This document shows positions 8,452 through 47,570 of a DNA stretch of 64,000 bases, one piece after another; position 1 is the first letter of the stretch, and every line of letters begins with the position of its first letter. Where the stretch lies: assembly GCA_934096105.1 (NCBI GenBank), contig CAKOLH010000004.1:2494-66493 (forward strand), read 5' to 3'. The notes under the pieces are model-generated. The model saw only the letters and a list, made by a program, of their open reading frames with translations. It had not been told where the DNA came from and searched no databases. The stretch comes from an uncultured Bacilli bacterium (lineage in GTDB: Bacteria; Bacillota_I; Bacilli_A; RF39; UBA660). A program made the translations under genes and the position numbers.

Positions 8452-8757
8452 ATGAAACTAAAAACTGGTGATAAAGTAGTAGTAGTTTCTGGTTCAAATA
8501 AAGGTAAGGAAGGAAAAATTACTAAGATCTTAGATTCTAGAGTTATCGTTGAAGGTGTTAACATTGTTAAGAAACATTTAAAACCTAAAAACAATAATGG
8601 TAATGGTGAAATAATCGAAACTGAAGCACCTATACATGTATCTAATGTAATGTTAGTAGATCCTAAGACAAAGAAACCTACTAAGGTAAAAATAGACAAA
8701 GATAGTAAAGGCAAGAAGATTAGAATATCTAAAAAGTCTAATGAAAAAATAGATTAA
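8452..8757 (+). CDS. rplX: 50S ribosomal protein L24
   Basis: MKLKTGDKVVVVSGSNKGKEG (KOW motif). Confidence 0.95.
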   Translation: MKLKTGDKVVVVSGSNKGKEGKITKILDSRVIVEGVNIVKKHLKPKNNNGNGEIIETEAPIHVSNVMLVDPKTKKPTKVKIDKDSKGKKIRISKKSNEKID

Positions 8758-17113: not shown

Positions 17114-17119
17114 TATATA

Positions 17120-17157
17120 GAGATATCTATTAATTTAGATATCTCTTTTCTTTTTTC
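17120..17157 (+). terminator. Intrinsic terminator of the alpha operon
   Basis: Perfect 11-bp stem AGAGATATCTA/TAGATATCTCT, 6-nt loop, then a T-rich tail. Confidence 0.85.
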
Positions 17158-17526
17158 TCTTAAGCCTAGGCTTAAGAGATATAACATAGCCTAGGGTCTA
17201 TGTTATGAAAGTTTATTTATTTTTTAAATACTTATTGATTTATTTTTTAAATACTTATTGCAAAATATCATTACTTATGATATTATTTTATACGTAAGGT
17301 AGATAGATATAATTTATGTGTAAAATCTATAAATTATATAAGGAAAGGAGGCTCCTCTTATGATTAAAATGGTAAATAGAAACGTTAACTATTTGTTAAT
17401 TAGGGAGAGGACTGTAAGTCTACAAATACTTATAAATAAAAGGATTATAGATAAAGACTAAGATAACTAATATAAATATTAGTCTTTCTTTATAGTCTTT
17501 TTTGTATTATAGAAAAGAGGTATATT
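17157..17526 (+). promoter_or_regulatory. Conserved leader, copy 1: two hairpins, a promoter, a roughly 235-nt 5' UTR and a terminator-like hairpin before the RBS
   Basis: Collinear with 44040-44369. Promoter is TTGCAA (17258-63), 17 nt, TATTAT (17281-86). Conserved core is AGGAGGC.C.TCT.ATGA.TAAA...AACGTTAACTATTTGTTAATTAGGG...TGTAAGTCTA. It ends with AAAGACTA...TAGTCTTTCTTTATAGTCTTTTTT. Confidence 0.6.
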
Positions 17527-18081
17527 ATGAATAAAAAATTATTATATAGTTTATTAATAGTATTATTAATAGTAGTAGTATCAGTAAGTATTACTTATGC
17601 TTGGTTATCATGGTCTGGAGTAGTTAATATATCTGGTACTAGTGAATGTTTTGATGTTAATTATGTTAAAGGACAAGATATAGGTAGTGATAGTAATCCT
17701 GCTAATTTTAGTTTAGCAAGTACTTATACTGAAGGTTTATCTTCAGTAATTAAAGTTAATTTAAAAGATACTTGTACTATTAGTAATGGTACTGGGACAT
17801 TATATTTAAATACTGATAGTACTACAAGTAATATATTACTTACTAGTAATGTATTAAAGTATCAAGTATTAGAAGGTACTAATGAAGTAGCAAGTGGTAT
17901 AGTAAGTAGTACAGGTAATTTACCTATATATAATAATATAGAAATAAATAATGAAGTAAAACAGTTAACAGTATATATATGGATAGATGGTAGTTTAGTA
18001 AATAATGATAATTCTAATGATATATTATCTAGTGTATATAAAGGAAATATAAGTATGAGTATAGAAAGTGGTGATAAATAA
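17527..18081 (+). CDS. Secreted or anchored protein: stand-alone copy of the N-terminal module shared with the DGR target and the LRR protein
   Basis: TM/signal segment ending ITYAWLSW, which resembles SipW/camelysin-class signal peptides. It shares the TVYIWIDG motif with 18081 (TLYIWIDG) and 44370 (TLYIYIDG). Its stop overlaps the next ATG (TAATG). Confidence 0.7.
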   Translation: MNKKLLYSLLIVLLIVVVSVSITYAWLSWSGVVNISGTSECFDVNYVKGQDIGSDSNPANFSLASTYTEGLSSVIKVNLKDTCTISNGTGTLYLNTDSTTSNILLTSNVLKYQVLEGTNEVASGIVSSTGNLPIYNNIEINNEVKQLTVYIWIDGSLVNNDNSNDILSSVYKGNISMSIESGDK

Positions 18082-19703
18082 TGAAAGATAATAAAAATAA
18101 TAAAGCAAAGATATATATGATATTTAGTTTAATAGTATTAGTAATAGTAGTAATAGTAAGTGGTACATATGCTTATTATGTATGGACTACAAGTGACAGT
18201 GATACTACAAAGATAGTTGCAGGAATAGGAGCTGCTACAGTTACCTTTAATGGAGGAAGTGATATAAGTGCTAATCTAAGACCAGTATCAGATAAAAGTA
18301 AAGGTATAGTAAAGAATATTAGTGTAAAGGCAGATACTACAGGATTAGTATTTAATATGTATTTAGATATAACTAGTATAGATACAGGATTAAAAGATGA
18401 GAGTTTTAGATATGAATTATATAAAGGAACTACTAAAGTAAAAGAAGGTAACTTTAGTGATAGTTATCTAACTAGTAATACAGTTACTTGTAGTAAGAAT
18501 AATACTAATCATATAGTATTATTAACTAATGAAAGTATATCTACATCAAAGACATCATATACATTATACATATGGATAGATGGAGCAAATTATACTAATC
18601 CAAATACTATGATGAATAAAATATTTAGTTTTAAATTACATGCTGATGGAGAAGGGGCAGTGTTAGCAAAGACAGCCGCAGAAACTATAACTAATTTATA
18701 TACAAATGCATCAAAAACATCAGCAACAAATAATGGTATAACTTATAATTATGCTAATATTTATGATACTGATAGTGATAACAATACAAGCGGTGGATTA
18801 ATGAATGATAGACTAGGTGGTACTACAACTAGTTTAGATGGTGGTAATATAAGATATTATGGAGCAAGTCCAAATAATTATATATATTTTAATTGTTCTG
18901 ACTATAGTAATCAAACATCTAGTACATGTGAAACATGGCGTATAATAGGAGTATTTGATGGCAAATTAAAACTAATAAGAGGTAGTCAAATAGGAACATA
19001 TTCTTGGGACAATAAGAATACTAGTACAGGAGCAGAAGATAATTATGGTGAAAATGACTGGACAACAGCAAGATTAATGAAACTGCTTAATCCTAGCGAT
19101 TATTATACAGTAGATTCTAACGATAATGGATTAGGCCAAAGTTTATATTACAATAGTACATCAGGAAAATGTTATAGCGGTCAAAATAATGCTACAGTAG
19201 ACTGCGATTTTACAAGTACAGGAATAAAAAATGATATTACAAGAAATATGATTGCAGATACAACATATAATCTAGGGGGATGGAATACCGCTGCAGTATA
19301 TCCAAATCAAATATATGGATACGAAAGAGGAACAACAGTATATACAGATAGACCAACAACATGGACTGGTAAAATAGCCTTAGCATATATAAGTGATTAT
19401 GGCTATGCAGCAGATTTTAATCAGTGTGTTAATAAACCATTAGATGAATATAGCGATAGTACTTGTAACTCAAACAACTGGATGAAAGCAATTTTAGGCA
19501 CTTCTAGTTGGGGATGGTTATTAACCCCTGATTCCAGCGACTCGAGTACTGCGCGGGCTGTGTCTTCGGGCGGCCATGTGCCCCACGGCTATGCGTATAA
19601 TGTGACTGGGGCCGCGCCAGTCCTTTCTCTAAGTTCTGAACTAGGAATAGAGTCAGGATCAGGGGACGGCTCAAGTAGTAATCCATACAAATTAAATGCG
19701 TAA
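18081..19703 (+). CDS. DGR target protein: signal/anchor, shared N-terminal module and a C-terminal variable ligand-binding domain carrying the VR
   Basis: N-terminus ...VSGTYAYYVWTTSD. The first 190 aa or so are homologous to 44370. The C-terminal WGWLLTPDSSDSSTARAVSSGGHVPHGYAYNVTGAAPVL is encoded by the VR. Confidence 0.85.
   Translation: MKDNKNNKAKIYMIFSLIVLVIVVIVSGTYAYYVWTTSDSDTTKIVAGIGAATVTFNGGSDISANLRPVSDKSKGIVKNISVKADTTGLVFNMYLDITSIDTGLKDESFRYELYKGTTKVKEGNFSDSYLTSNTVTCSKNNTNHIVLLTNESISTSKTSYTLYIWIDGANYTNPNTMMNKIFSFKLHADGEGAVLAKTAAETITNLYTNASKTSATNNGITYNYANIYDTDSDNNTSGGLMNDRLGGTTTSLDGGNIRYYGASPNNYIYFNCSDYSNQTSSTCETWRIIGVFDGKLKLIRGSQIGTYSWDNKNTSTGAEDNYGENDWTTARLMKLLNPSDYYTVDSNDNGLGQSLYYNSTSGKCYSGQNNATVDCDFTSTGIKNDITRNMIADTTYNLGGWNTAAVYPNQIYGYERGTTVYTDRPTTWTGKIALAYISDYGYAADFNQCVNKPLDEYSDSTCNSNNWMKAILGTSSWGWLLTPDSSDSSTARAVSSGGHVPHGYAYNVTGAAPVLSLSSELGIESGSGDGSSSNPYKLNA
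19526..19631 (+). repeat. DGR variable repeat (VR)
   Basis: About 106 bp, aligning without gaps to 19895-20000 (offset 369). The differences are concentrated at TR adenines. It ends in the GC-rich GGGGCCGCGCCAG, an IMH-like element. Confidence 0.9.
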
Positions 19704-19747
19704 GCAGTTAATTTGAGATAACTTTGGTAGGAAGAACTTGGTAAGAG

Positions 19748-19828
19748 GCCCCTTAAACAGGCGAAGTCTGTTAGGGGCAATGGCGGCGAAAGTCGCCAAG
19801 AGAAGATAGATATTCGCCGAAAGGCGAA
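19748..19828 (+). other. Three GC-rich hairpins between VR and TR, two with GAAA tetraloops
   Basis: 19748-19778 is GCCCCTTAAACAG...CTGTTAGGGGC (imperfect). 19782-19797 is GGCGGC-GAAA-GTCGCC. 19813-19828 is TTCGCC-GAAA-GGCGAA. None is followed by a T-run. Confidence 0.7.
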
Positions 19829-19894
19829 AAAATAAAAATGGTATTAACACTGGTTCGGTGTTTAATATAGGGTGATTTTATATAAAACTAGTAT

Positions 19895-20000
19895 CCCTAA
19901 TTCCAGCAACTCGAATAATGCGTGGAATGTGAATTCGGACGGCAATGTGGGCAACAACAATGCGTATAATGTGAATGGGGCCGCGCCAGCCCTTTATATA
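19895..20000 (+). repeat. DGR template repeat (TR)
   Basis: Non-coding copy of the VR. In the VR frame it reads PNSSNSNNAWNVNSDGNVGNNNAYNVNGAAPALYI, with 12 AAY (Asn) codons. Confidence 0.9.
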
Positions 20001-20252
20001 GTGGGTTTTCTACTAGGCTAAGGCTTAGTATGACAGTGCTTTAAAGGACAAAAATCATCCTTGAGATATTTATCTCTAAATGTTAAGCTATAGATGGATT
20101 ATATCTACGGGTATACCTAGAACTATAGATATTTATGTAAAAGTGCTAGTAGAGGCTTTTATAGAAAATTAATTCAAATATTTTGAATATATTTTCTTAT
20201 GTCTCTATTAGCGCTTATTTTTAATCTGTAAAGGCTGTGATATTATAATGAT
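20001..20252 (+). ncRNA. Putative DGR spacer RNA region downstream of TR
   Basis: Non-coding and rich in hairpins (AAGGA...TCCTT, GAGATA..TATCTC, ATTCAAA...TTTGAAT). A long-range pairing GCTAGTAGAG/CTCTATTAGC is possible. The role is inferred by analogy to the Bordetella phage DGR. Confidence 0.35.
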
Positions 20253-20549
20253 ATGAGTATGATAAATAGATATAAGTTTACTAAGAATATCTATAAAGAC
20301 TATATAGTACTAATAATTAAAAATAAAAAATATTATTCTTTTGATAAAGATAAGAAAATATTAAATTATATTAATTTTAATAATAAACTATATTTATTAA
20401 AAAAGTATAGTATTAATTTTATAGTACTAGATAATTTAGAAATACTTAGTATAAATAATTATGATGTAAATAATTATTATAAATATTTATATATATCTTA
20501 TGTAAAAGATATATTATTAGTAATAAGGGGAAGTATAAGAAGTGAATAG
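20253..20549 (+). CDS. Small DGR accessory ORF, weakly MutS-domain-I-like
   Basis: 98 aa. The DYIVLIIKNKKYYSFDKDKKILNYI segment parallels SIVLRKSGGFYICFDDDAIVLSYL of the next ORF. It overlaps the next ORF by 8 nt. Confidence 0.5.
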   Translation: MSMINRYKFTKNIYKDYIVLIIKNKKYYSFDKDKKILNYINFNNKLYLLKKYSINFIVLDNLEILSINNYDVNNYYKYLYISYVKDILLVIRGSIRSE

Positions 20550-20904
20550 TATAGTTTTAAGAAAATCAGGTGGTTTTTATATATGCTTTGATGATGATGC
20601 TATTGTATTATCATATTTATGTAATTATAAAATAAACAATGGAAAAGTGGGTTTTCCATTAAATACTATTAATAAAGTTATTAATATACTAGAGAATAAT
20701 AGTATTAGTTATATTGTTAAAGAAAATATGGAAGATATAAATAAGAAGATGTATGGCAATAAGAATAAATATAAATGTTATTTGGATAAAGGTAAAAAGA
20801 AAATAGATTTAGATTATAGAATAAATAAAATTATAAATAAAATTAATTGTATGAATGAAGAAGATGTTAATAAACTACTAGATTTAATTGAGGAAAATAT
20901 ATGA
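20542..20904 (+). CDS. MutS N-terminal (domain I)-like small protein, DGR accessory
   Basis: SIVLRKSGGFYICFDDDAIVLSYLCNYKI..GKVGFPLNTINKVINILENNSISYIV parallels the MutS stretch ILLFYRMGDFYELFYDDA...LDI.L....AGIPYHAVENYLAKLV..G..VAI. Confidence 0.6.
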   Translation: MNSIVLRKSGGFYICFDDDAIVLSYLCNYKINNGKVGFPLNTINKVINILENNSISYIVKENMEDINKKMYGNKNKYKCYLDKGKKKIDLDYRINKIINKINCMNEEDVNKLLDLIEENI

Positions 20905-21239
20905 ATGATTTTAAAATAGTAAAAAATATTAAGTTATTTATATATAGTTTAGATAATATAGTTATTAATATTCCAAATAAAGATAAAGTAATAAAAGAAA
21001 GATTATATAATACTAGTTATGATATATTATATTTAGTATATAGATGTAATTATAAAAGTGAAAATAAAAATGAATATTATAAAGATATATTATCTAACAT
21101 TAGCATGTTAGATTTTTATTTAGAAAGATGTCTAAAGAATAAATATATTAATAATAAAGTATGTGAGAAGTTAAGTAATAATTTACTTTCTATTACAAAA
21201 ATGATATATGGTTGGATTAAAAGTGAAAGTAAATGTTAA
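20901..21239 (+). CDS. avd: Avd-like DGR accessory variability determinant (helical bundle)
   Basis: 112 aa, predicted helical, with a basic C-terminal part. It sits immediately upstream of the RT and overlaps it, as in canonical DGRs. Confidence 0.65.
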   Translation: MNDFKIVKNIKLFIYSLDNIVINIPNKDKVIKERLYNTSYDILYLVYRCNYKSENKNEYYKDILSNISMLDFYLERCLKNKYINNKVCEKLSNNLLSITKMIYGWIKSESKC

Positions 21240-22278
21240 TGATATTATAGATATTTATGAAAAAGAAGTAAGTGTTAATACTAAGAATAAAAGTAAAGTA
21301 TATAATTTTGAAAAGAATAAAATAGAAAATATTTATGATATTAAAAATATTATAGAGAGTGATAATTATAAAATAACTAAGTATAATGTATTTACTATTA
21401 ATAACCCTAAATATAGAATAGTTATGAGTTTAAATATGAAAGATAAGATTATTAATCATTATGTAGCAAGATTTATATTATTACCTAAACTAAACAAATA
21501 CTTAGATATAAGAAACTGTGCTACTAGAAAGAATATGGGTTATGATTATGCCATTAAATTACTAAAAAGATATATTGAATGTAATAAAAAATATGGTAAG
21601 TTTTATATACTTAAAATAGATATTAGTAAATATTTTTATAGTATAGACCATAATATATTAAAAGAATTATTAAAAGATAAATTAAATGAAGAAGAATATA
21701 AAATAGTGAGTAGTATAATAGATAGTACTAATGAAAGTTATATTAATAATATTATTATTAATATTAAAAATAATCTATTAATTAAAGATAAAAATAGATG
21801 TAATGAAATAAATAAATTACCATTATATGAATATAATAAAGGATTACCTATAGGTAATATGACTAGTCAGATATTATCTATATTTTATTTATATAAGTTA
21901 GATTATTATATTATAAATAATTTGAAATTAAAATATATGGTAAGATATATGGATGATTATATTATTATATCTAATAATAAAGATAAATTAAAGAAAGCAT
22001 TAAAAGAAATAGAATATATTTTAAATAAAAAATATAAATTAAATATTAATAAAAATAAAACTAATATATATGATAGTTATCATGGTTTTGAATATTTAGG
22101 TTATATGTTTTATATTAGAAATAATAAAACTATTATTAAGATAAAAAGTAGTAATAAAAGAAGAAGAAATAATAATATTAAAAAGATAAATTATTTATAT
22201 AAGAATAATTATATTTCTTATCAAAAATATTTTAATAGTATGAATAATTATAATAATAGTTATAAATATACTAAGTAA
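21208..22278 (+). CDS. DGR-type reverse transcriptase
   Basis: RT motifs FYILKIDISKYFYSIDH, LPIGNMTSQ (the DGR-characteristic I/LGxxxSQ) and RYMDDYIII (YxDD). About 356 aa with no maturase or endonuclease domains. Confidence 0.9.
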   Translation: MVGLKVKVNVNDIIDIYEKEVSVNTKNKSKVYNFEKNKIENIYDIKNIIESDNYKITKYNVFTINNPKYRIVMSLNMKDKIINHYVARFILLPKLNKYLDIRNCATRKNMGYDYAIKLLKRYIECNKKYGKFYILKIDISKYFYSIDHNILKELLKDKLNEEEYKIVSSIIDSTNESYINNIIINIKNNLLIKDKNRCNEINKLPLYEYNKGLPIGNMTSQILSIFYLYKLDYYIINNLKLKYMVRYMDDYIIISNNKDKLKKALKEIEYILNKKYKLNINKNKTNIYDSYHGFEYLGYMFYIRNNKTIIKIKSSNKRRRNNNIKKINYLYKNNYISYQKYFNSMNNYNNSYKYTK

Positions 22279-22286
22279 TATCTAAG

Positions 22287-22396
22287 TATATAGATATGGC
22301 TTATATATAATAGGTATGTAGATACATTATTCTTAGACTAAGAATTAGGCTAAGAATAATACTAATAAGACTTAGAATAAGGCTTATAGTGAATAT
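22287..22396 (+). repeat. Dispersed structured intergenic repeat, copy A
   Basis: TATATAGATATGGCTTATATATAATAGGTATGTAGATAC-ATTATTCTTAG-actaagaattagg-CTAAGAATAAT-ACTAATAAGACTTagaatAAGGCTTATAGTGAATAT. Confidence 0.75.
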
Positions 22397-22485
22397 ATAT
22401 TATAAAGAAACAAACACTTATACAGGTGTTTTTTCTTTACTATTTAAAACTTTTGTGGTAGTATATTAAATACTTGGAGGATTCT

Positions 22486-23268
22486 ATGTACGAAAAACTA
22501 TTAAATATTATTTATACTTATACTTTTAATTATAAATTACCTGATATAGATTTTGTAAATGAAGTAATAAATATTGCTATTGATAATGATGACTTAAGTT
22601 CTTTTGTTAATGGTGTTAGTTATAATTATGAATATACAGCATCATATGGTTTTATTTCAAAAACATTAAGATTTAATATAAATAATATTATTAGGTGTAT
22701 AAAAAATTCATTAAATTTTTATAGTGATGCTTATGATTTAAAAGAAATAAGATTATTTGAAAAATATGTATATGTCTGTTATGAATTTGTTTATACTATT
22801 TTACATGAATTGGAACATATTAAACAAATTAAATTACTAGATACTAGTGAAGAAAATACTTTTGAAACTAATTTAATTCAAAATAATATTGATATGTTAT
22901 CAATTAATCCTGATTTATATAAGAAAGAACATGATTTATTTCCTATAGAAAGAATGGCTATTATAAATAGTAATTCAAAGATAATTGAAATGTTAAAGTT
23001 AGATGCTGATGTATTCTTTATTTTGAATAATATTTATGTTAATAGATATAATTCTTTTGTTACACAGTATTATTCTGATGGTAGATTTCCATTACTTGAA
23101 TATATTAATGCTACTGATTCTAATCTTTATTATGAAGAACTCTTAATTGATAAAAATAATACTAAAAAAATATTAAAAAGAGTTAAAAAAGATATTTCTT
23201 TTGAAGATAGAGTTTTGATGGGATTACCAATTACACAGAAGGAACTTAATGAGATAAAAAACAAATAA
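22486..23268 (+). CDS. HExxH-motif protein (putative zinc metallopeptidase-like), paralog 1
   Basis: The ATG at 22486 (MYEKLLNIIY) matches the paralog N-terminus MYEEILNIIY. Motif ILHELEHIKQ. Shared C-terminus SFEDRVLMGLP. Confidence 0.6.
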   Translation: MYEKLLNIIYTYTFNYKLPDIDFVNEVINIAIDNDDLSSFVNGVSYNYEYTASYGFISKTLRFNINNIIRCIKNSLNFYSDAYDLKEIRLFEKYVYVCYEFVYTILHELEHIKQIKLLDTSEENTFETNLIQNNIDMLSINPDLYKKEHDLFPIERMAIINSNSKIIEMLKLDADVFFILNNIYVNRYNSFVTQYYSDGRFPLLEYINATDSNLYYEELLIDKNNTKKILKRVKKDISFEDRVLMGLPITQKELNEIKNK

Positions 23269-23285
23269 TATTTGGGGGTGATATT

Positions 23286-24065
23286 ATGTATGAAGAGATA
23301 TTAAATATTATTTATAATTATGCTTTTAATTATAAATTGCCTGATGTTAAGTTTATTGATAGTGTTTTAGATATAATAGTGGATAAAGAATTAGGAGAAT
23401 ATATTACAAGAGTTGAACATAATTATCAAAGTTTTGCTTTAGCTTCTTATCTATATGAAAATAAAATATTAAGATTTAATCTTGATATGATTTTAATTCA
23501 GTATTCTAATTTTTATCAAGTACACAAAAGAATGTATGGTATGGATGATTTTAATAAATATTTATATATATGTTTAAGCGTGTTAGAAATTATTTTTCAC
23601 GAACTGGAACATGTTATTCAAAGTAAAAAAACTAATACTTTATTAGTAGATGATTTTGAGAGACAGTTAATTGAAATAAGTACTATTGCAGTAGAAGTAT
23701 ATCCTGATTTATATGATAAACGTCATGATTTGTTTTTTATTGAAAGAGAGGCTAATATCAAAAGCTGCAAAAAAATAAAAGAAGTATTAGCATTATGTGA
23801 ATCATCTTCAAGAGGTATTAAGAATAATTTTAATAAAAGATATAATCAATTAGTAAATAAATATTATTCATATGATAATTATCCATTATTAACGTTTTTA
23901 AATATTACTCATGGTAAACTTTCATATTATGATTTTCCTATTGAAAAATATAATACCGAAAGAATATTAGCTAGTACTAAAGAAAATCTTTCTTTTGAAG
24001 ATAGAGTTTTGATGGGACTACCTTTGGATAAAAAAGAATATCACAGATTAAGAAGATTAAAGTAA
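23286..24065 (+). CDS. HExxH-motif protein, paralog 2
   Basis: Collinear with 22486-23268. Motif IFHELEHVIQ. Confidence 0.6.
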   Translation: MYEEILNIIYNYAFNYKLPDVKFIDSVLDIIVDKELGEYITRVEHNYQSFALASYLYENKILRFNLDMILIQYSNFYQVHKRMYGMDDFNKYLYICLSVLEIIFHELEHVIQSKKTNTLLVDDFERQLIEISTIAVEVYPDLYDKRHDLFFIEREANIKSCKKIKEVLALCESSSRGIKNNFNKRYNQLVNKYYSYDNYPLLTFLNITHGKLSYYDFPIEKYNTERILASTKENLSFEDRVLMGLPLDKKEYHRLRRLK

Positions 24066-24081
24066 ACTATGAGGTAATATT

Positions 24082-24744
24082 ATGAAAAATTTATATGACG
24101 AAAAAATAATGTGGGGGACACATGCTAGTGTTAGAAATATTGATAACAATGTATGTGAAAAAGTATATAATGATTATACTATGACTACAATTAAAGATCA
24201 TATTATAGATGAATGGATTTTTAATACTATAAAAAATTTAGACTTAGAATCTTTTGTTAAACTATATGATTATGTTTTTAATACTAGTAGAAGACAAATA
24301 ATTAGTTATACTATGGAGTATTATGAACCCTACTATGATGATATACTTAATATCGAAACGGAATATATTATAGATAGTTTTATAAAAATATATAATGATA
24401 TTATTATTTTATCAAAAAATAATATTTTGATAGGAGATATGAATTTTAGTAATATAATATTTGGTAAGTATGGTATTAAAGTAATTGATTTTGATAATTA
24501 TAAAAAATGTAATTTTAATACTGAAGAACTAATAGAATTAAATAAAAAAGAGTTATGTAGTTGTTTTAAAGGTGCATATAGAAATGCTTTATATGATATT
24601 TTGGTTATTAGATATATTCCTAATTGTATAGGAAAAATGATGGATTTATTTAATCCAGATATATGTGATTTATCTAATTATGTTACAAAAAAATTAGTAA
24701 AATATCCTAATTTACTTAGTTATTTTGATGATAATAAAGTGTAA
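24082..24744 (+). CDS. Small atypical kinase-fold protein (RIO/Bud32/Kdo-kinase-like)
   Basis: VCEKVY (VAIK-like Lys), MEYYE hinge, ILIGDMNFSNIIF (catalytic D....N) and IKVIDFDN (DFG-like). The assignment rests on motifs only. Confidence 0.45.
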   Translation: MKNLYDEKIMWGTHASVRNIDNNVCEKVYNDYTMTTIKDHIIDEWIFNTIKNLDLESFVKLYDYVFNTSRRQIISYTMEYYEPYYDDILNIETEYIIDSFIKIYNDIIILSKNNILIGDMNFSNIIFGKYGIKVIDFDNYKKCNFNTEELIELNKKELCSCFKGAYRNALYDILVIRYIPNCIGKMMDLFNPDICDLSNYVTKKLVKYPNLLSYFDDNKV

Positions 24745-29300: not shown

Positions 29301-29301
29301 A

Positions 29302-29393
29302 ATATATAGTTATGGCTTATATATAATAGATGTTATATTATTAGACTATAGGCTAATAATAACACTTTAATACCTTAGAATTAAAGTGAATAA
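29302..29393 (+). repeat. Dispersed structured intergenic repeat, copy B
   Basis: ...TATGGCTTATATATAATAGATG...TATTATTAG-actatagg-CTAATAATA-ACACTTTAAT-accttaga-ATTAAAGTGAAT. Confidence 0.7.
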
Positions 29394-29444
29394 AATAGTT
29401 GAAAAATAAGATAAAATACTATATAATTAAATTGGTGATATAAA

Positions 29445-31167: not shown

Positions 31168-31272
31168 TATAAATTATGCTTATATATAATAGATATGTAG
31201 ATATATTATTTTGAGACTTAAGGCTCAAAATAACACTAATAAGACTTACAAAGTAAGGCTTATAGTGAACAT
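31168..31272 (+). repeat. Dispersed structured intergenic repeat, copy C
   Basis: ...ATGCTTATATATAATAGATATGTAGATATA-TTATTTTGAG-acttaagg-CTCAAAATAA-CACTAATAAGACTTACaaaGTAAGGCTTATAGTGAACAT. Confidence 0.75.
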
Positions 31273-31338
31273 ATTAAAATAACTTTGGTAGGGTTTACTT
31301 TTCTTTAGTTTTATGCAATAATATATCTAGGTGGTATA

Positions 31339-38075: not shown

Positions 38076-38149
38076 GCCAAATTAGTTTAGTGGTAGAACA
38101 AGGCCCTCGTAATGCCTAGAGGTAAGTTCGATTCTTACATTTGGCACCA
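38076..38149 (+). tRNA. tRNA-Thr (anticodon CGU) with encoded CCA
   Basis: Hand-folded cloverleaf. Acceptor GCCAAAT/ATTTGGC, D arm GTTT-AGTGGTA-GAAC, anticodon arm AGGCC-CTCGTAA-TGCCT, T arm GTAAG-TTCGATT-CTTAC, then ACCA. Confidence 0.85.
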
Positions 38150-44369: not shown

Positions 44370-46595
44370 ATGAATAAATATAAGTTATATATGATATTAG
44401 GAATAGTAGTATTAGTGTTATCAGTAAGTAGTAGTTTTGCTTATTATGTATGGAAGAATACATCTAATGCACTAGTTAGTTTAAATGTATGTACTCCCAC
44501 AATAACATTTGCTGGAGGTTCAACAATTAATGGAGTAGACATAGTGCCAGTATTAACTAAAGAAGAAGGGACTATAAAAGATATTGAAGTAAAAAAGAAT
44601 AGTAATTGTAATAGAGATGTAACTATGAATCTATATTTAGAGTTAACTACATTTCCTACAGAACTAGCAGAATCTTCATTTGTCTATGAATTATATAAAA
44701 ATAGTGAAACTATGGCTATAGCAAGTGGTAACTTTGCTAATAAAACAGAGGGAGATACAATAACACTTTTATCTAATCAAATATTAAATACAAGTAAAGA
44801 TACTTATACATTATATATTTATATAGATGGTAATGTAGATAATCCAAGTACTATGGCAGGAAAGAACTTCTTATTTAAATTATGGGGTTCAGGAGAAGGA
44901 GCAATATATAAAGAAAATGTGATAACTACTCCAGATAATCCAAGTACTAGTACATCAAAGTTCTTTAATACTGAAGTAATGAGAGAAGAGATACAATCAC
45001 TTACTATTGCTGAAGATAACACAGTACCAGATACACCAGGAGTAATATCAAAAGATATATCTTCAAATCAAGATGGAACAGTAATGTTATGGTATACACC
45101 AAAAGAAGTAACATCAAGCGATGGAAGTACAAAAACAATGTATGATATGTGGATAGGTGGAGAAAATGGTGTATTACAAACAGGAACAAATGCTTCAGGT
45201 ATGTTTGCATATTTAACTAACATAGAAAAACTAGATTTATCAAAACTAGATACTTCATACATAACCAATATGTCTAGGATGTTTTATAATAGTTCAGGTT
45301 TAAAATCTATAGATTTATCTAACTTTAATACGAGTAATGTTACTAGTATGAGTCATATGTTCGATGGATGTTCTAATTTACTTAATTTAGATGTATCTAA
45401 TTTTGACACTAGCAAGGTAACTGGAATGATAGCAATGTTCTATAATTGCAGTTCATTAACTAACATAGATGTTTCTAATTTTGATACCAGTAATGTTAAG
45501 AGTATGGAAGCTATGTTTGGATTGTGTTCCAATTTAAATACTCTAGACTTAAGTAATTTTGATACTTCTAATGTAACTAATATGGGGAATCAGGTTGGAA
45601 AAGGAGGTATGTTTCAGGGATGCACTAATTTAAAGAGTTTAAATATAAGTAGTTTTAACACTTCAAATGTAACAAATATGACGTGGTTATTTGCAAGTTG
45701 CAAGTCACTTACTGAAATTGATGTATCAAACTTTGATACAAGCAAGGTAACATCAATGCGAGGAATGTTTAGTGGTGCCTCTTCATTGCAAACATTAAAT
45801 ATAGCAAACTTTAATTTATCTAATGTTGATAGTATGAGCGAAATGTTTAGAAATTGCACTAATTTAATTGATTTAATTTTACCTAATTCTTCGGCACCAA
45901 AATTAACCACTATGTATCGTACATTTCAATATTGTACTAATTTAAAAGGAACAATAGATTTATCCAATTTTAAACCAAATAATTATGTTGACTTTGGTTT
46001 TGCTTTTAATGGGTGTAAAAACGTAACTGAAGTAAAATTAAATGACTTTAAGTTTTCATCATTTAACGCAGTTTTTTATGGCTGCACTTTACTTGAAAAG
46101 ATAGACTTTACAGGAATTAGTACATCAAATATAACAAATATGCAAACTGCTTTTGCCGATTGTAGTTCTTTAACAAGTTTAGATTTAACAAATTTTGATG
46201 TTTCAATGGTAGCCACAAGTAAATATGGTAATGCTGGTCTTCTTCAAACATTTGGTGGATGTTCTAATCTTGAAACGCTTAATATTACAGGTTGGAAAAT
46301 AACAAACAAGGTAACAAAGTTGTATGGTACTTTTGATAAATGTAGTAAATTAAAAAAAATAGATTTATCAAATTGGGATACAAGTGGAGTAACTGATTTA
46401 AGTTATGCTTTTAGAAATATGACAAATATTGAAGAAATAGATTTAAGAAGAGCAGATTTTAGTAATGTAACATTTACTACTTCAGTATTCTATCTAACAA
46501 ATAATAATGTTAAAATAATAGTAAAAGATGATATACAAAAAAATTGGTTTAATACTAATTTTAGTAATTTAACAAATATAGTAGTTGCAGACTAA
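44370..46595 (+). CDS. Surface protein: shared N-terminal module plus BspA-type / DUF285 leucine-rich repeats
   Basis: N-terminus SSSFAYYVWKNTS and a roughly 190-aa module homologous to 18081. It continues with many tandem repeats of about 25 aa (DLSNFDTSNVT.M..MF..CS.L). Confidence 0.85.
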   Translation: MNKYKLYMILGIVVLVLSVSSSFAYYVWKNTSNALVSLNVCTPTITFAGGSTINGVDIVPVLTKEEGTIKDIEVKKNSNCNRDVTMNLYLELTTFPTELAESSFVYELYKNSETMAIASGNFANKTEGDTITLLSNQILNTSKDTYTLYIYIDGNVDNPSTMAGKNFLFKLWGSGEGAIYKENVITTPDNPSTSTSKFFNTEVMREEIQSLTIAEDNTVPDTPGVISKDISSNQDGTVMLWYTPKEVTSSDGSTKTMYDMWIGGENGVLQTGTNASGMFAYLTNIEKLDLSKLDTSYITNMSRMFYNSSGLKSIDLSNFNTSNVTSMSHMFDGCSNLLNLDVSNFDTSKVTGMIAMFYNCSSLTNIDVSNFDTSNVKSMEAMFGLCSNLNTLDLSNFDTSNVTNMGNQVGKGGMFQGCTNLKSLNISSFNTSNVTNMTWLFASCKSLTEIDVSNFDTSKVTSMRGMFSGASSLQTLNIANFNLSNVDSMSEMFRNCTNLIDLILPNSSAPKLTTMYRTFQYCTNLKGTIDLSNFKPNNYVDFGFAFNGCKNVTEVKLNDFKFSSFNAVFYGCTLLEKIDFTGISTSNITNMQTAFADCSSLTSLDLTNFDVSMVATSKYGNAGLLQTFGGCSNLETLNITGWKITNKVTKLYGTFDKCSKLKKIDLSNWDTSGVTDLSYAFRNMTNIEEIDLRRADFSNVTFTTSVFYLTNNNVKIIVKDDIQKNWFNTNFSNLTNIVVAD

Positions 46596-46622
46596 GAAAG
46601 ATATAACTAATATCTTTCTTTT
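46594..46622 (+). terminator. Intrinsic terminator after the LRR gene
   Basis: AAGAAAGATA-taactaa-TATCTTTCTT then TT. Confidence 0.8.
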
Positions 46623-46625
46623 AGT

Positions 46626-46728
46626 ATATAGATATGGCTTATATATAATAGATATGTAGATATATTATATTAAGACTAAGAATTAGGCTTAATATAACAG
46701 TGAAAGACTTACATAGTAAGGCTTGAAC
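46626..46728 (+). repeat. Dispersed structured intergenic repeat, copy D
   Basis: TATATAGATATGGCTTATATATAATAGATATGTAGATATA-TTATATTAAG-actaagaattagg-CTTAATATAA-CAGTGAAAGACTTACataGTAAGGCTTGAAC. Confidence 0.75.
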
Positions 46729-46761
46729 TAAATAAAAAGAATATAAAAATAATAAAAAATA

Positions 46762-46814: not shown

Positions 46815-47357
46815 ATGGAAGAAATATTAAATAGTACAGAAGAAAAGATGATGTTAACAATTGAATCTTTAGAAAACAAGTTTACTAATGTAAGAGCAGG
46901 TAGAGCTAATCCTAATATGTTAGATGGTATTATGGTAGAGTATTATGGAGTACCAACACCACTTAAAAGTTTAGCCAATATATCTATACCTGAGGCTAGA
47001 CAATTATCTATTAAACCATTTGATAGATCATGTCTTGGAGCAATAGAAAAAGCTATCTTCGAAGCTAATTTAGGAGTTACTCCTAATAACAATGGAGAAG
47101 TAGTATTTATAGTAATACCACCACTTACTGAAGATAGAAGAAAAGAATTAGTAAAACAAGTTAAAAACTTAGGAGAAGAAGCAAAAATAGCTCTTAGAAA
47201 TATTAGACAAGATGCTAATAAAGCATTAGAAAACCAAAAATTACCTGAGGATGAAGAAAAAAGAGGCAATGAAAGAGTACAAGATTTAATTAATGAATAT
47301 AATAAAATTGTAGATGAAAAATTAAAAGAGAAAGAAAAAGATTTAATGACTATATAA
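46815..47357 (+). CDS. frr: Ribosome recycling factor
   Basis: VRAGRANPNMLDGI...PPLTEDRRKELVKQVK. Confidence 0.95.
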   Translation: MEEILNSTEEKMMLTIESLENKFTNVRAGRANPNMLDGIMVEYYGVPTPLKSLANISIPEARQLSIKPFDRSCLGAIEKAIFEANLGVTPNNNGEVVFIVIPPLTEDRRKELVKQVKNLGEEAKIALRNIRQDANKALENQKLPEDEEKRGNERVQDLINEYNKIVDEKLKEKEKDLMTI

Positions 47358-47394
47358 TAAGACAATGATAAGGAAGTAGTAATACTATAAAAAT

Positions 47395-47570
47395 AATTAT
47401 TAGCGAGCTCTTAGAGGGTGAAAGAAGAGTTAATTATTTAGTATGAATTCACCCTTTAGTTTTATACCGTTAATCAGGTTAAAGATTTAAGAGTATAACT
47501 TATGTTATAAAGAAAGGTGGTACCGCGGATATTAATTCGTCCTTTTATGGTACTATCTTTTTTCTTTTTT
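47395..47570 (+). promoter_or_regulatory. T-box leader (tRNA-Phe-responsive by context) with terminator
   Basis: Conserved T-box AAAGGUGGUACCGCGG (47512-47528). Terminator AAAGGTGGTACC/GGTACTATCTTT plus a T-run. A UUC triplet at about 47448. pheST lies downstream. Confidence 0.75.

Follow-up and report, generated by a model that had tools for sequence, protein, structure and literature searches.

The stretch of DNA analysed here (the window; 64,000 nucleotides of an uncultured Bacilli bacterium, contig CAKOLH010000004.1 of assembly GCA_934096105.1, positions 2,494 to 66,493) carries, between rplQ and glmS, a chromosomal set of genes and repeats with the organization of a diversity-generating retroelement (DGR). 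All of its parts are co-oriented on the + strand, in the order target gene, template repeat (TR), ORF98, MSL, Avd and reverse transcriptase (RT). An earlier reading made without database searches (the sequence-only reading) had proposed a complete, co-oriented chromosomal DGR directed at the C-terminal end of a surface protein. This proposal is borne out, the target being membrane-anchored: the repeat, the RT, Avd, MSL, the initiation of mutagenic homing element (IMH) with its counterpart IMH*, and the RNA are all present, and the open reading frames (ORFs) of the target, ORF98, ORF120 (MSL), ORF112 (Avd) and the RT lie at the positions given there. We regard it as highly probable that the region is a complete chromosomal DGR of the MSL-plus-Avd type in a very AT-rich, spore-forming gut Bacillota. 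What it appears to add to the known elements is a second MutS-domain-I-like gene, a covarying RNA structure around the template, and signs of a cassette that moves with the C-terminal part of its target.

The RT gene (21208-22278, +) encodes a 356-aa protein with an isoelectric point (pI) of 9.7, which matches RVT_1 (E = 1.2e-20) and carries LPIGNMTSQ from residue 213 and RYMDDY from residue 246, the motifs on which the sequence-only reading had relied; RTs of the DGR clade have I/LGxxxSQ where other RTs have a motif of the QGxxxSP type. Among solved structures its best match is 8ub7 (E = 1.2e-16 over both halves; the next best reaches 1e-7), a 328-aa RT with nine entries, IGSLTSQ and YMDD, and the window RT is aligned with it through IGSLTSQ. 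In our reading, 8ub7 is the bRT of Bordetella phage described by Handa et al. An RT family of PHROG is matched as well (E = 4.5e-60).

An RT of this kind might instead have come from a group II intron, a retron or an Abi/DRT defence system, the neighbouring repeat being coincidental. The NCBIfam matches are indeed to non-DGR enzymes, as no DGR RT model is among the matches returned, but all of them fall far under their cut-offs: group II RT/maturase (group_II_RT_mat) scores 85.5 bits against 300, Drt3a 46 against 200 and retron St85 38 against 235. No maturase or endonuclease domain was found in the RT, nor any intron or retron RNA in the Rfam search, so that the earlier statement that intron-maturase, endonuclease and retron features are absent holds. 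With a DGR RT as its nearest solved structure and with Avd, an adenine-biased repeat and DGR RNA elements beside it, a non-DGR origin of the enzyme is effectively refuted.

Avd (ORF112; 20901-21239, +) is a 112-aa protein of pI 9.2; Avd proteins in general are small, basic four-helix bundles. The earlier assignment as Avd-like agrees with the top match in three libraries, i.e. Pfam bAvd (E = 1.6e-8; 35.4 bits, below the cut-off of 40), NCBIfam DivGenRetAVD (E = 1.5e-11; 44.5 bits, below the cut-off of 80) and the PHROG 'Avd protein of DGR' (E = 1.6e-12). No match to Avd was found among solved-structure sequences. The identities of both ORF112 and ORF120 are strengthened by their relatives and by the other libraries.

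With a GC content of 26.7% the window is very AT-rich, and its genes include those for YqfD (E = 2.5e-64), CotZ, a sortase and VanY. The host is a gut Bacillota with very AT-rich DNA and a cell wall that forms spores, in line with the AT-rich spore former named previously. The chromosomal location was also correctly recognized. The DGR is flanked by a ribosomal protein operon (rplQ) on one side and by glmS, thyA and folA on the other, and no phage structural, integrase or lysis genes occur within 20 kb of it. The idea of a prophage-borne DGR that diversifies a phage receptor-binding protein draws on the fact that targets with the DUF6273 domain, discussed below, are common in gut phage DGRs and on a match of the target's variable region (VR) to a PHROG of unknown function. 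Apart from the flanks, it is opposed by the related copies of the cassette, which likewise lie among housekeeping genes, and by the anchor module of the target, which is common to cellular leucine-rich repeat (LRR) proteins. We consider a prophage origin very improbable and treat the element as a chromosomal DGR.

Template repeat, variable region and DGR RNA

The 3' end of the target gene (19526-19631) and the non-coding DNA behind it (19895-20000) share a direct repeat of 106 nt. The sequence-only reading had placed the second arm in non-coding DNA 369 nt downstream, and the pair survives alignment at this offset, ungapped and 80% identical. Its 21 mismatches are strongly biased: 17 of them are at adenines of the downstream copy, which has 31 (hypergeometric p = 4e-8), and every one of these 17 corresponds to codon position 1 or 2 of the upstream copy. 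The non-coding copy is the TR (19895-20000, +), the last ~10 nt of which form IMH*. The VR proper, i.e. the part predicted to be replaced by cDNA, spans 19526-19607 (+) and differs from TR positions 19895-19976 by 15 adenine-site and three other mismatches.

Taken in the reading frame of the VR, the TR contains 12 AAY codons, with 28 adenines within 19895-19989, and its theoretical repertoire comes to ~10^16 proteins without a stop codon ever being generated. The repeat forms a G+C island inside very AT-rich DNA, as the GC content is 62% in the VR and 48% in the TR, compared with 13-19% in the cassette genes and 26.7% in the window. There is one VR and one TR only; no further VRs or remote targets were found within the window.

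The IMH-like element (19608-19631, +) consists of a G+C-rich 13-mer, GGGGCCGCGCCAG, followed by TCCTTTCTCTA. The 13-mer is the same in the VR and TR copies, and the element differs from IMH* from 19621 (19990 in the TR) onward. At this first divergent position the VR has T and the TR has C, a difference that is fixed in the six closest related loci and in L010 (the loci named for it are L003, L006, L007, L027, L013 and L010). The last ~10 nt of the repeat, from 19621/19990, represent the difference between IMH and IMH* and not mutagenised sequence. The TR of L003 carries an extra T within the G+C-rich element (GGGGCCTGCGCCAG), which is absent from its own VR and from the window copy.

The two non-adenine mismatches at 19581-19582 have a different background. 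The VR codon concerned is CCC and the TR codon (19950-19952) is GGC; because the templates of the relatives read AAY there, the change is probably on the TR side, where a template adenine codon would itself have been altered.

The TR is embedded in a structured RNA (19870-20129, +) whose helices were followed by covariation over nine loci. A helix of 10 bp, P0 (19870-19879 with 20051-20060, +), brackets the TR, with compensatory changes in six of its ten pairs. Three nucleotides from P0, helix P1 (+) joins the 3' end of the TR (CCTTTA, 19991-19996) to TAAAGG at 20042-20047. A stem-loop with an 8-bp stem and a TAAG tetraloop (20011-20030, +) follows the TR, a short stem-loop (20063-20076, +) follows P0, and a closing helix (20087-20093 with 20123-20129, +) ends the structure. 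In the nine-locus alignment 90% of cells are paired, as compared with 38-56% when the partners are slid, and 16 pairs changed on both sides, as compared with 7.7 +/- 2.0 in shuffles. None of 500 shuffles reached the observed value on four of five measures (33 of 500 did so for further pair types). Conservation over the 250 nt that follow the TR exceeds that of the coding genes. The structure around the template is well supported by this covariation and can be read against the Bordetella ribonucleoprotein (RNP). No Rfam family reached its gathering score over the DGR RNA of the window and 12 related loci; matches to RT-3 (17 bits) and RT-9 at 19746-19869 were at chance level and were discarded.

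In the Bordetella RNP, a TR:Sp template:primer duplex is followed two nucleotides on by a 'cPRT Stop' duplex of TR-upstream and TR-downstream sequences. A tetraloop stem-loop that binds Avd directly follows the TR, and a second, short one follows the Stop duplex. Elements of this type are reported to be predictable in 207 of 278 Avd-bearing DGRs (Handa et al. 2024, 10.1101/2023.10.23.563531). The window shares with the DGR of Bordetella phage BPP-1 the adenine-specific transfer from TR to VR, a G+C-rich IMH, the pairing of the TR 3' end with downstream sequence, a flank duplex two to three nucleotides on, and the tetraloop stem-loop after the TR. It differs in that the upstream strand of the bracketing duplex is non-coding, whereas in BPP-1 it lies inside avd, in that MSL proteins occur in the window only and the element is chromosomal, and in the low identity of the RTs (E = 1e-16).

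Based on these observations, we suggest the following course of events. The RNA of about 19870-20130 carries the TR, and covariation shows that P0 brackets the template and that P1 pairs its 3' end with TAAAGG. By analogy with Bordetella, P1 would be the template:primer duplex, P0 the cPRT Stop duplex, and the TAAG stem-loop (8-bp stem) would be bound by Avd. Priming by the RT-Avd complex would use the RNA near G20047; copying would start at C19990 and end before 19880, with misincorporation opposite the 28 template adenines. A cDNA start opposite C19990 fits the sequence data, since VR and TR differ in a fixed way (T/C) from 19621/19990 on. As is known for the family, the cDNA would then replace 19526-19607 of the target, in a direction set by the IMH (19608-19631) and by G+C-rich hairpins.

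Candidates for the latter are three hairpins after the target stop codon (19748-19828, +), at 19748-19778, 19781-19798 and 19813-19828, the second and third with GAAA loops. Folded as DNA, they reach -23.3 kcal/mol (z = -5.8; none of 200 shuffles was as stable), and the pairing of the first, judged by eye, is kept through changes of both arms in L006/L007, L027 and L013. We regard them as candidate GC-rich inverted repeats for target recognition, such as occur in 34% of DGRs (Wu et al. 2018, PMC5758913). Another hairpin (19842-19867; TATTAACAC-TGGTTCG-GTGTTTAATA), located just upstream of the TR RNA, has compensatory stem changes in L003 and L013; L027 and L010 have a TTGACA-17-TATAAT promoter in its place. 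On the other side of the TR RNA, a long hairpin followed by the T-run TTATTTTT (20141-20223, +) appears in both the minimum free energy and the centroid fold. It was missed by a simple terminator scan because its loop is too long, and it is possibly a terminator or attenuator separating the TR RNA from the accessory genes.

Two MutS-like proteins in one cassette

MSL (20542-20904, +) is a 120-aa protein of pI 8.6. Its residues 2-83 match profile positions 16-93 of Pfam MutS_I with E = 0.0046, which is below the threshold, and the same family is matched by seven of eight MSL family members (best E = 4.7e-4), in agreement with the earlier description of this ORF as MutS-like. Neither the single sequence nor the profile matched any solved-structure sequence, and Pfam and NCBIfam scans revealed no HRDC in the cassette. 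In the survey of Wu et al. (2018, PMC5758913), small MutS-like proteins of 112-283 aa define the MSL type, and MSL with Avd constitutes 'Architecture D', found in 16 of 372 DGRs including that of Legionella, always with avd and never with HRDC. The size of ORF120 and its co-occurrence with avd fit this MSL. In L010 (5622-5996) the MSL gene ends with the Avd C-terminal motif (…KMVYGWIRKSGL) and there is no separate avd, as if a deletion had joined MSL to the end of Avd.

The sequence-only reading had described the accessory set as unusual. Its order does differ from the mtd-avd-TR-brt arrangement of BPP-1, other gene orders having already been catalogued (Wu et al. 2018, PMC5758913). On the other hand, the set is not unusual in kind, because MSL with avd has been published in the same survey and Msl is also present in the Bacteroides Bfr, Bth and Bun DGRs; only ORF98, which that reading had left without an identity, appears to be new. 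With the MSL-type DGRs of Legionella pneumophila Corby and Bacteroides the window element has in common an RT with the I/LGxxxSQ motif, Avd and a small MutS-domain-I-like protein encoded on one strand, the absence of HRDC, a cellular location and a VR at the 3' end of a surface protein gene. It differs from them in the second, shorter MutS-domain-I-like gene, in its host, a low-GC spore former and not Legionella or Bacteroides, and in its target, which is DUF6273-like and not DUF1566 (LdtA) or a type V pilus tip.

This second gene, ORF98 (20253-20549, +; here also called MSL2), encodes a basic protein of 98 aa (pI 9.6). It had no match in Pfam, NCBIfam or PHROG. Compared by hhalign with the MSL family profile, the ORF98 family gave a probability of 95.7% (E = 8.4e-9 over 65 columns), and the hidden Markov models of the two families match each other's ORFs; relative to MSL, a segment of 16 residues is missing from ORF98. 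With 30 sequences as input, AlphaFold2 gave a model with a mean predicted local distance difference test score (pLDDT) of 95.4. The best Foldseek matches of this model in the PDB are nearly all MutS/MSH3 chains (TMq ~0.55, root-mean-square deviation 2.6-3.1 A, ~80 columns), with weak E-values, as expected for a small domain compared with 800-residue chains. In BFVD (probability 0.97) the three best matches are small proteins of phages that bear the names 'MutS domain I', 'DNA mismatch repair protein' and 'MutS-like N-terminal domain'.

ORF98 is present in every related cassette in which the region is covered, at 100% down to 33% identity, and is kept alongside RTs down to 53% identity. It lies mostly upstream of MSL and, in L010, L011 and L036-L038, downstream of the RT. 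Its family forms 265 clusters at 50% identity (among 1.84 billion representatives), all of ~90-105 aa and none named. More distant DGR loci, with RTs 23-33% identical, have neither ORF98 nor MSL. We therefore describe ORF98 as a conserved fourth protein gene of the cassette, a truncated MSL paralogue which, judging from the model and the profile comparison, adopts a MutS-domain-I-like fold. No description of a second MSL-like DGR gene was found in the searchable literature, and such a conserved second gene appears to be new here, unless it is one of the minor candidate accessory genes PAG1-4 of Wu et al. An assignment of ORF98 to CH1 was rejected: CH1 proteins are 160-169 aa long, acidic (pI ~4.7) and restricted to DGRs in which avd, HRDC and MSL are all missing (Wu et al. 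2018, PMC5758913), whereas ORF98 has 98 aa and a pI of 9.6 and stands beside MSL and avd.

It could be argued that ORF98 is not a functional component at all, i.e. that it is a decaying MSL duplicate or a small hitch-hiking ORF. It contains no known motif, lacks the 16-residue segment of MSL as well as the Phe of the Phe-X-Glu motif of MutS, and has a coding sequence of only 13.5% GC, which favours the occurrence of long ORFs. Such an ORF would, however, hardly show the conservation described above, with the residues Y7, K11, D33, Y39, D60 and Y78 invariant, a retention that outlasts changes of position in the cassette, a narrow length range over 265 clusters and a confidently modelled fold. 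We judge this explanation unlikely and retain ORF98 as a part of the DGR.

The two proteins differ at the residues with which MutS contacts mismatches, as far as can be judged from an alignment to the E. coli MutS N-terminus that gave weak hhalign statistics and is to be taken as a lead. MSL is in register with GDFYE and keeps the Phe (F12, equivalent to E. coli F36), with Ile at the position of Glu38. ORF98 retains the N-terminal QY..K helix, but its Phe position is occupied by Lys. Neither protein has the Glu of Phe-X-Glu. One MutS-like protein would thus carry the mismatch-contacting residue and the other would not, since MSL has the Phe and ORF98 a Lys. This resembles the asymmetry of MSH2-MSH6; unlike MutS, both proteins are stand-alone units of ~100 aa, without connector, clamp and ATPase domains.

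The most likely job of MSL and ORF98 would be to bind the heavily mismatched heteroduplex of cDNA and VR, so that the mismatch repair of the host does not revert it to the parental sequence. In Bacteroides, knockout of the host mutS raises retrohoming 5-10 fold. We tentatively put forward, as a speculative and rather doubtful extension, that MSL and ORF98 may form a two-subunit module made of MutS domain I only, similar to MSH6/MSH2, which clamps the heteroduplex against mismatch repair, with ORF98 as the partner tied to the template/target end and with the RT-less modules described below possibly being satellites served in trans. The assignment of ORF98 to that end is suggested because it adjoins the TR in most architectures and is the sole cassette protein kept in the modules composed of target, ORF98 and TR RNA.

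The target protein and the relatives of the cassette

The target gene (18081-19703, +) encodes 540 aa with an N-terminal membrane helix that carries a GTYAYY motif, a stalk module of ~260 aa and a C-terminal domain of ~276 aa that holds the VR. Its first ~260 residues are 35% identical (E = 4e-37) to a 741-aa DUF285/LRR protein encoded at 44370-46595, the C-terminus of which is built of DUF285/leucine-rich repeats. Directly upstream lies a gene for a 184-aa protein with an N-terminal membrane helix (17527-18081, +), 26% identical to target residues 7-182 (E = 8e-13). This first gene of the two-gene target operon, a paralogue of the anchor module at the N-terminus of the target, accompanies the DGR without being one of its core components. 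A promoter-like site (17258-17286) and, after rplQ, a terminator-like site (17119-17146) precede it, and its homologues adjoin the cassette in L007 and L008. Since the N-terminus of the target is common to the DUF285/LRR protein and to the product of the upstream gene, these similarities point to a reusable anchor/stalk module bearing different putative binding domains.

The C-terminal domain has 2458 homologues. Twelve of 40 sampled ones match DUF6273 (best E = 2.2e-5), two relatives are above the cut-off of this family, and the VR of the relatives corresponds to positions ~117-171 of the 172 in the DUF6273 profile, at its C-terminal end. The same placement is seen in DUF6273 targets of gut phages (tentaclins and Faecalibacterium prophage targets), from which the window protein differs in being cellular and membrane-anchored, not a tail fibre, and in remaining below every Pfam threshold. 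DUF6273 is a recurrent DGR target domain whose AlphaFold models resemble C-type lectins (PMC10743442, PMC11792537); the fold is described in the literature for members other than the window protein. The window's own target had no family match in Pfam, and neither its single sequence nor its profile matched solved-structure sequences. A model of the C-terminal 276 aa, predicted from an alignment of 40 sequences of 65-82% identity, had a pLDDT of 42.8 and was unusable. For these reasons a C-type-lectin fold and surface exposure of the domain are no more than inferred. The 'adhesin or lectin' proposed earlier is a conjecture, DUF6273 having been matched in relatives only. By the design of the repeat, ~15 codons (12 of them AAY) would be rewritten, presumably at the exposed tip of the DUF6273-like domain.

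Homologues of the RT number ~1900, and many were recovered from gut metagenomes, those of the Hadza among them; the related loci come from metagenome-assembled genomes of the human gut labelled uncultured Bacilli or 'Tenericutes'. A block that begins inside the C-terminal domain of the target (19217) and ends at 22406 is 91% identical to L003, where rseP and a radical-SAM gene flank the locus and the target that precedes the cassette has 604 aa and another N-terminus. The cassettes of L007 and L027 are found in yet other chromosomal contexts. These arrangements are evidence for joint mobility of the cassette and the C-terminal portion of the target. On the right, the shared block is bounded by a copy (22299-22406, +) of a dispersed intergenic repeat of ~110 nt, which directly follows the RT in both the window and L003 and is probably not a DGR component. 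Within the 64 kb there are three close and two diverged copies (22299-22406, 46597-46752, 31178-31282, 29301-29397 and, on the - strand, 2573-2684), and L003 has one at 8591-8732. They share the core GCTTATATATAATAGRTATGTAGATA, followed by ...TAGACTAAGAATTAGGCT...AAGACTT..AAGGCTT; the repeat had no match in Rfam.

Every RT-bearing relative in which the target region is covered has its own TR/VR pair with adenine-biased mismatches. The counts at adenines and at other positions are 16/3 in L003, 16/3 in L006, 13/2 in L007, 16/2 (plus a 3-nt gap) in L010, 17/2 in L027 and 18/2 in L038, and each VR tracks its own diverged TR. A second kind of locus contains target, ORF98 and TR RNA only (L030-L032/L039, at about 4367-6430 in L030, and L033-L035/L040-L041), with no MSL, Avd or RT within 10 kb. 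About half of the mismatches in these RT-less modules are at adenines (adenine/other counts of 11/12, 12/10 and 19/13). The L033 module lies between spoIIGA and sigE, and its target carries a type IV pilin N-methylation motif. These modules are either relics or satellite loci served in trans.

Other neighbouring genes differ between loci. Tandem YhcG/DUF1016 genes of the PD-(D/E)XK type, in arrays of up to five copies, lie directly downstream of the cassettes in L027 (8181-12291), L003-L005, L028, L029 and L036, and none is present in the window. In the window, three genes (22474-23268, 23286-24065 and 24082-24744) separate the DGR from glmS. The first two encode tandem paralogues of ~260 aa with a HELEH motif and the third a 220-aa protein; no family match was found for the paralogues (22474-24065) or for the 220-aa protein. 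Strain L042, described below, has all three genes in identical form, and none of the other DGR loci contains them, so that a connection with the DGR is improbable. The only Rfam matches of the window at the gathering score are a T-box leader upstream of pheS (47356-47547) and a tRNA gene (38076-38146).

Activity of the element and its meaning

At the level of the family, variability is concentrated at the codons that contain TR adenines. Over 40 homologues, the mean entropy is 2.44 bits at codons with a TR adenine at position 1 or 2, 1.17 bits at the other VR codons and 0.75 bits in the remainder of the domain. In some close pairs the differences are concentrated in the VR, e.g. in the homologues P0241 and P0252, whose identity is 93% outside it and 43% inside. 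Others, such as P0317 and P0329 (95% identical outside and 100% inside), indicate that the VRs of some lineages are frozen.

Several observations weigh against the picture of a fully understood, working element. The only near-identical second strain, L042, differs from the window by 28 single-nucleotide polymorphisms (SNPs) over 13.6 kb and has no differences in the VR, the TR or the cassette. The VR also contains a non-adenine change, T19554C, which replaces a Trp found in the TR and in 34 of 40 homologues by Arg (CGG) and suggests that the VR has not been rewritten for some time. No canonical promoter was found directly upstream of the TR in the scan, which covered the window only; L027 and L010 have theirs (read by eye) at the corresponding position, and a simple scan of this kind, with 40 sites found and 52 expected in the window, is uninformative in AT-rich DNA. 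The Avd (Pfam, NCBIfam) and MSL matches lie under the curated cut-offs, the window's target has neither a Pfam family nor a usable model, and the roles of MSL and ORF98 are read from fold resemblance alone.

The comparison with L042 deserves a closer look. In the target gene, 23 of the 28 SNPs lie at 18132-18878, i.e. in the N-terminal two-thirds, and are mostly synonymous, with five in the other ~12 kb; this patch has the appearance of a tract brought into the target, outside its VR, by recombination. One may therefore ask whether the DGR is structurally intact and at the same time quiescent or recently inactivated, with the VR as a fixed allele and the cassette kept by inertia or tightly repressed. 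A VR that stayed identical in two strains next to a 23-SNP patch would be consistent with this, as would the Trp-to-Arg change, the TR codon GGC in place of the AAY of the relatives, homologue pairs such as P0317/P0329 whose VRs are more alike than the rest of the domain, and the RT-less loci, which show that decay happens in the lineage. However, identical VRs are weak evidence, because the strains are extremely close (~0.04% background divergence); moreover, the four cassette ORFs are intact and the same in both strains, the RNA helices are intact, and some Bacteroides DGRs are silent in the laboratory yet functional. Quiescence is thus a serious possibility, which we nevertheless hold to be somewhat less probable than its opposite. 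Invariance of the VR, which the sequence-only reading had regarded as speaking against a DGR, was in part observed, namely in the one near-identical strain available, and the high entropy at TR-adenine codons across the family speaks for one. The element is best described as a complete chromosomal DGR whose current activity is unproven.

Without its two MutS-like genes, the element would be one more DGR of the gut microbiome, where they are abundant. The main open step of DGR biology is how the mutagenised cDNA enters the VR and survives mismatch repair. To our knowledge, MutS-like accessory genes of DGRs have been noted but never tested. The lineage described here offers hundreds of natural variants and RNA helices that can be mapped onto the solved Bordetella RNP, and, with two diverged MutS-domain-I proteins, one with and one without the mismatch-contacting Phe, might constitute a compact system for studies of the mismatch-repair step.

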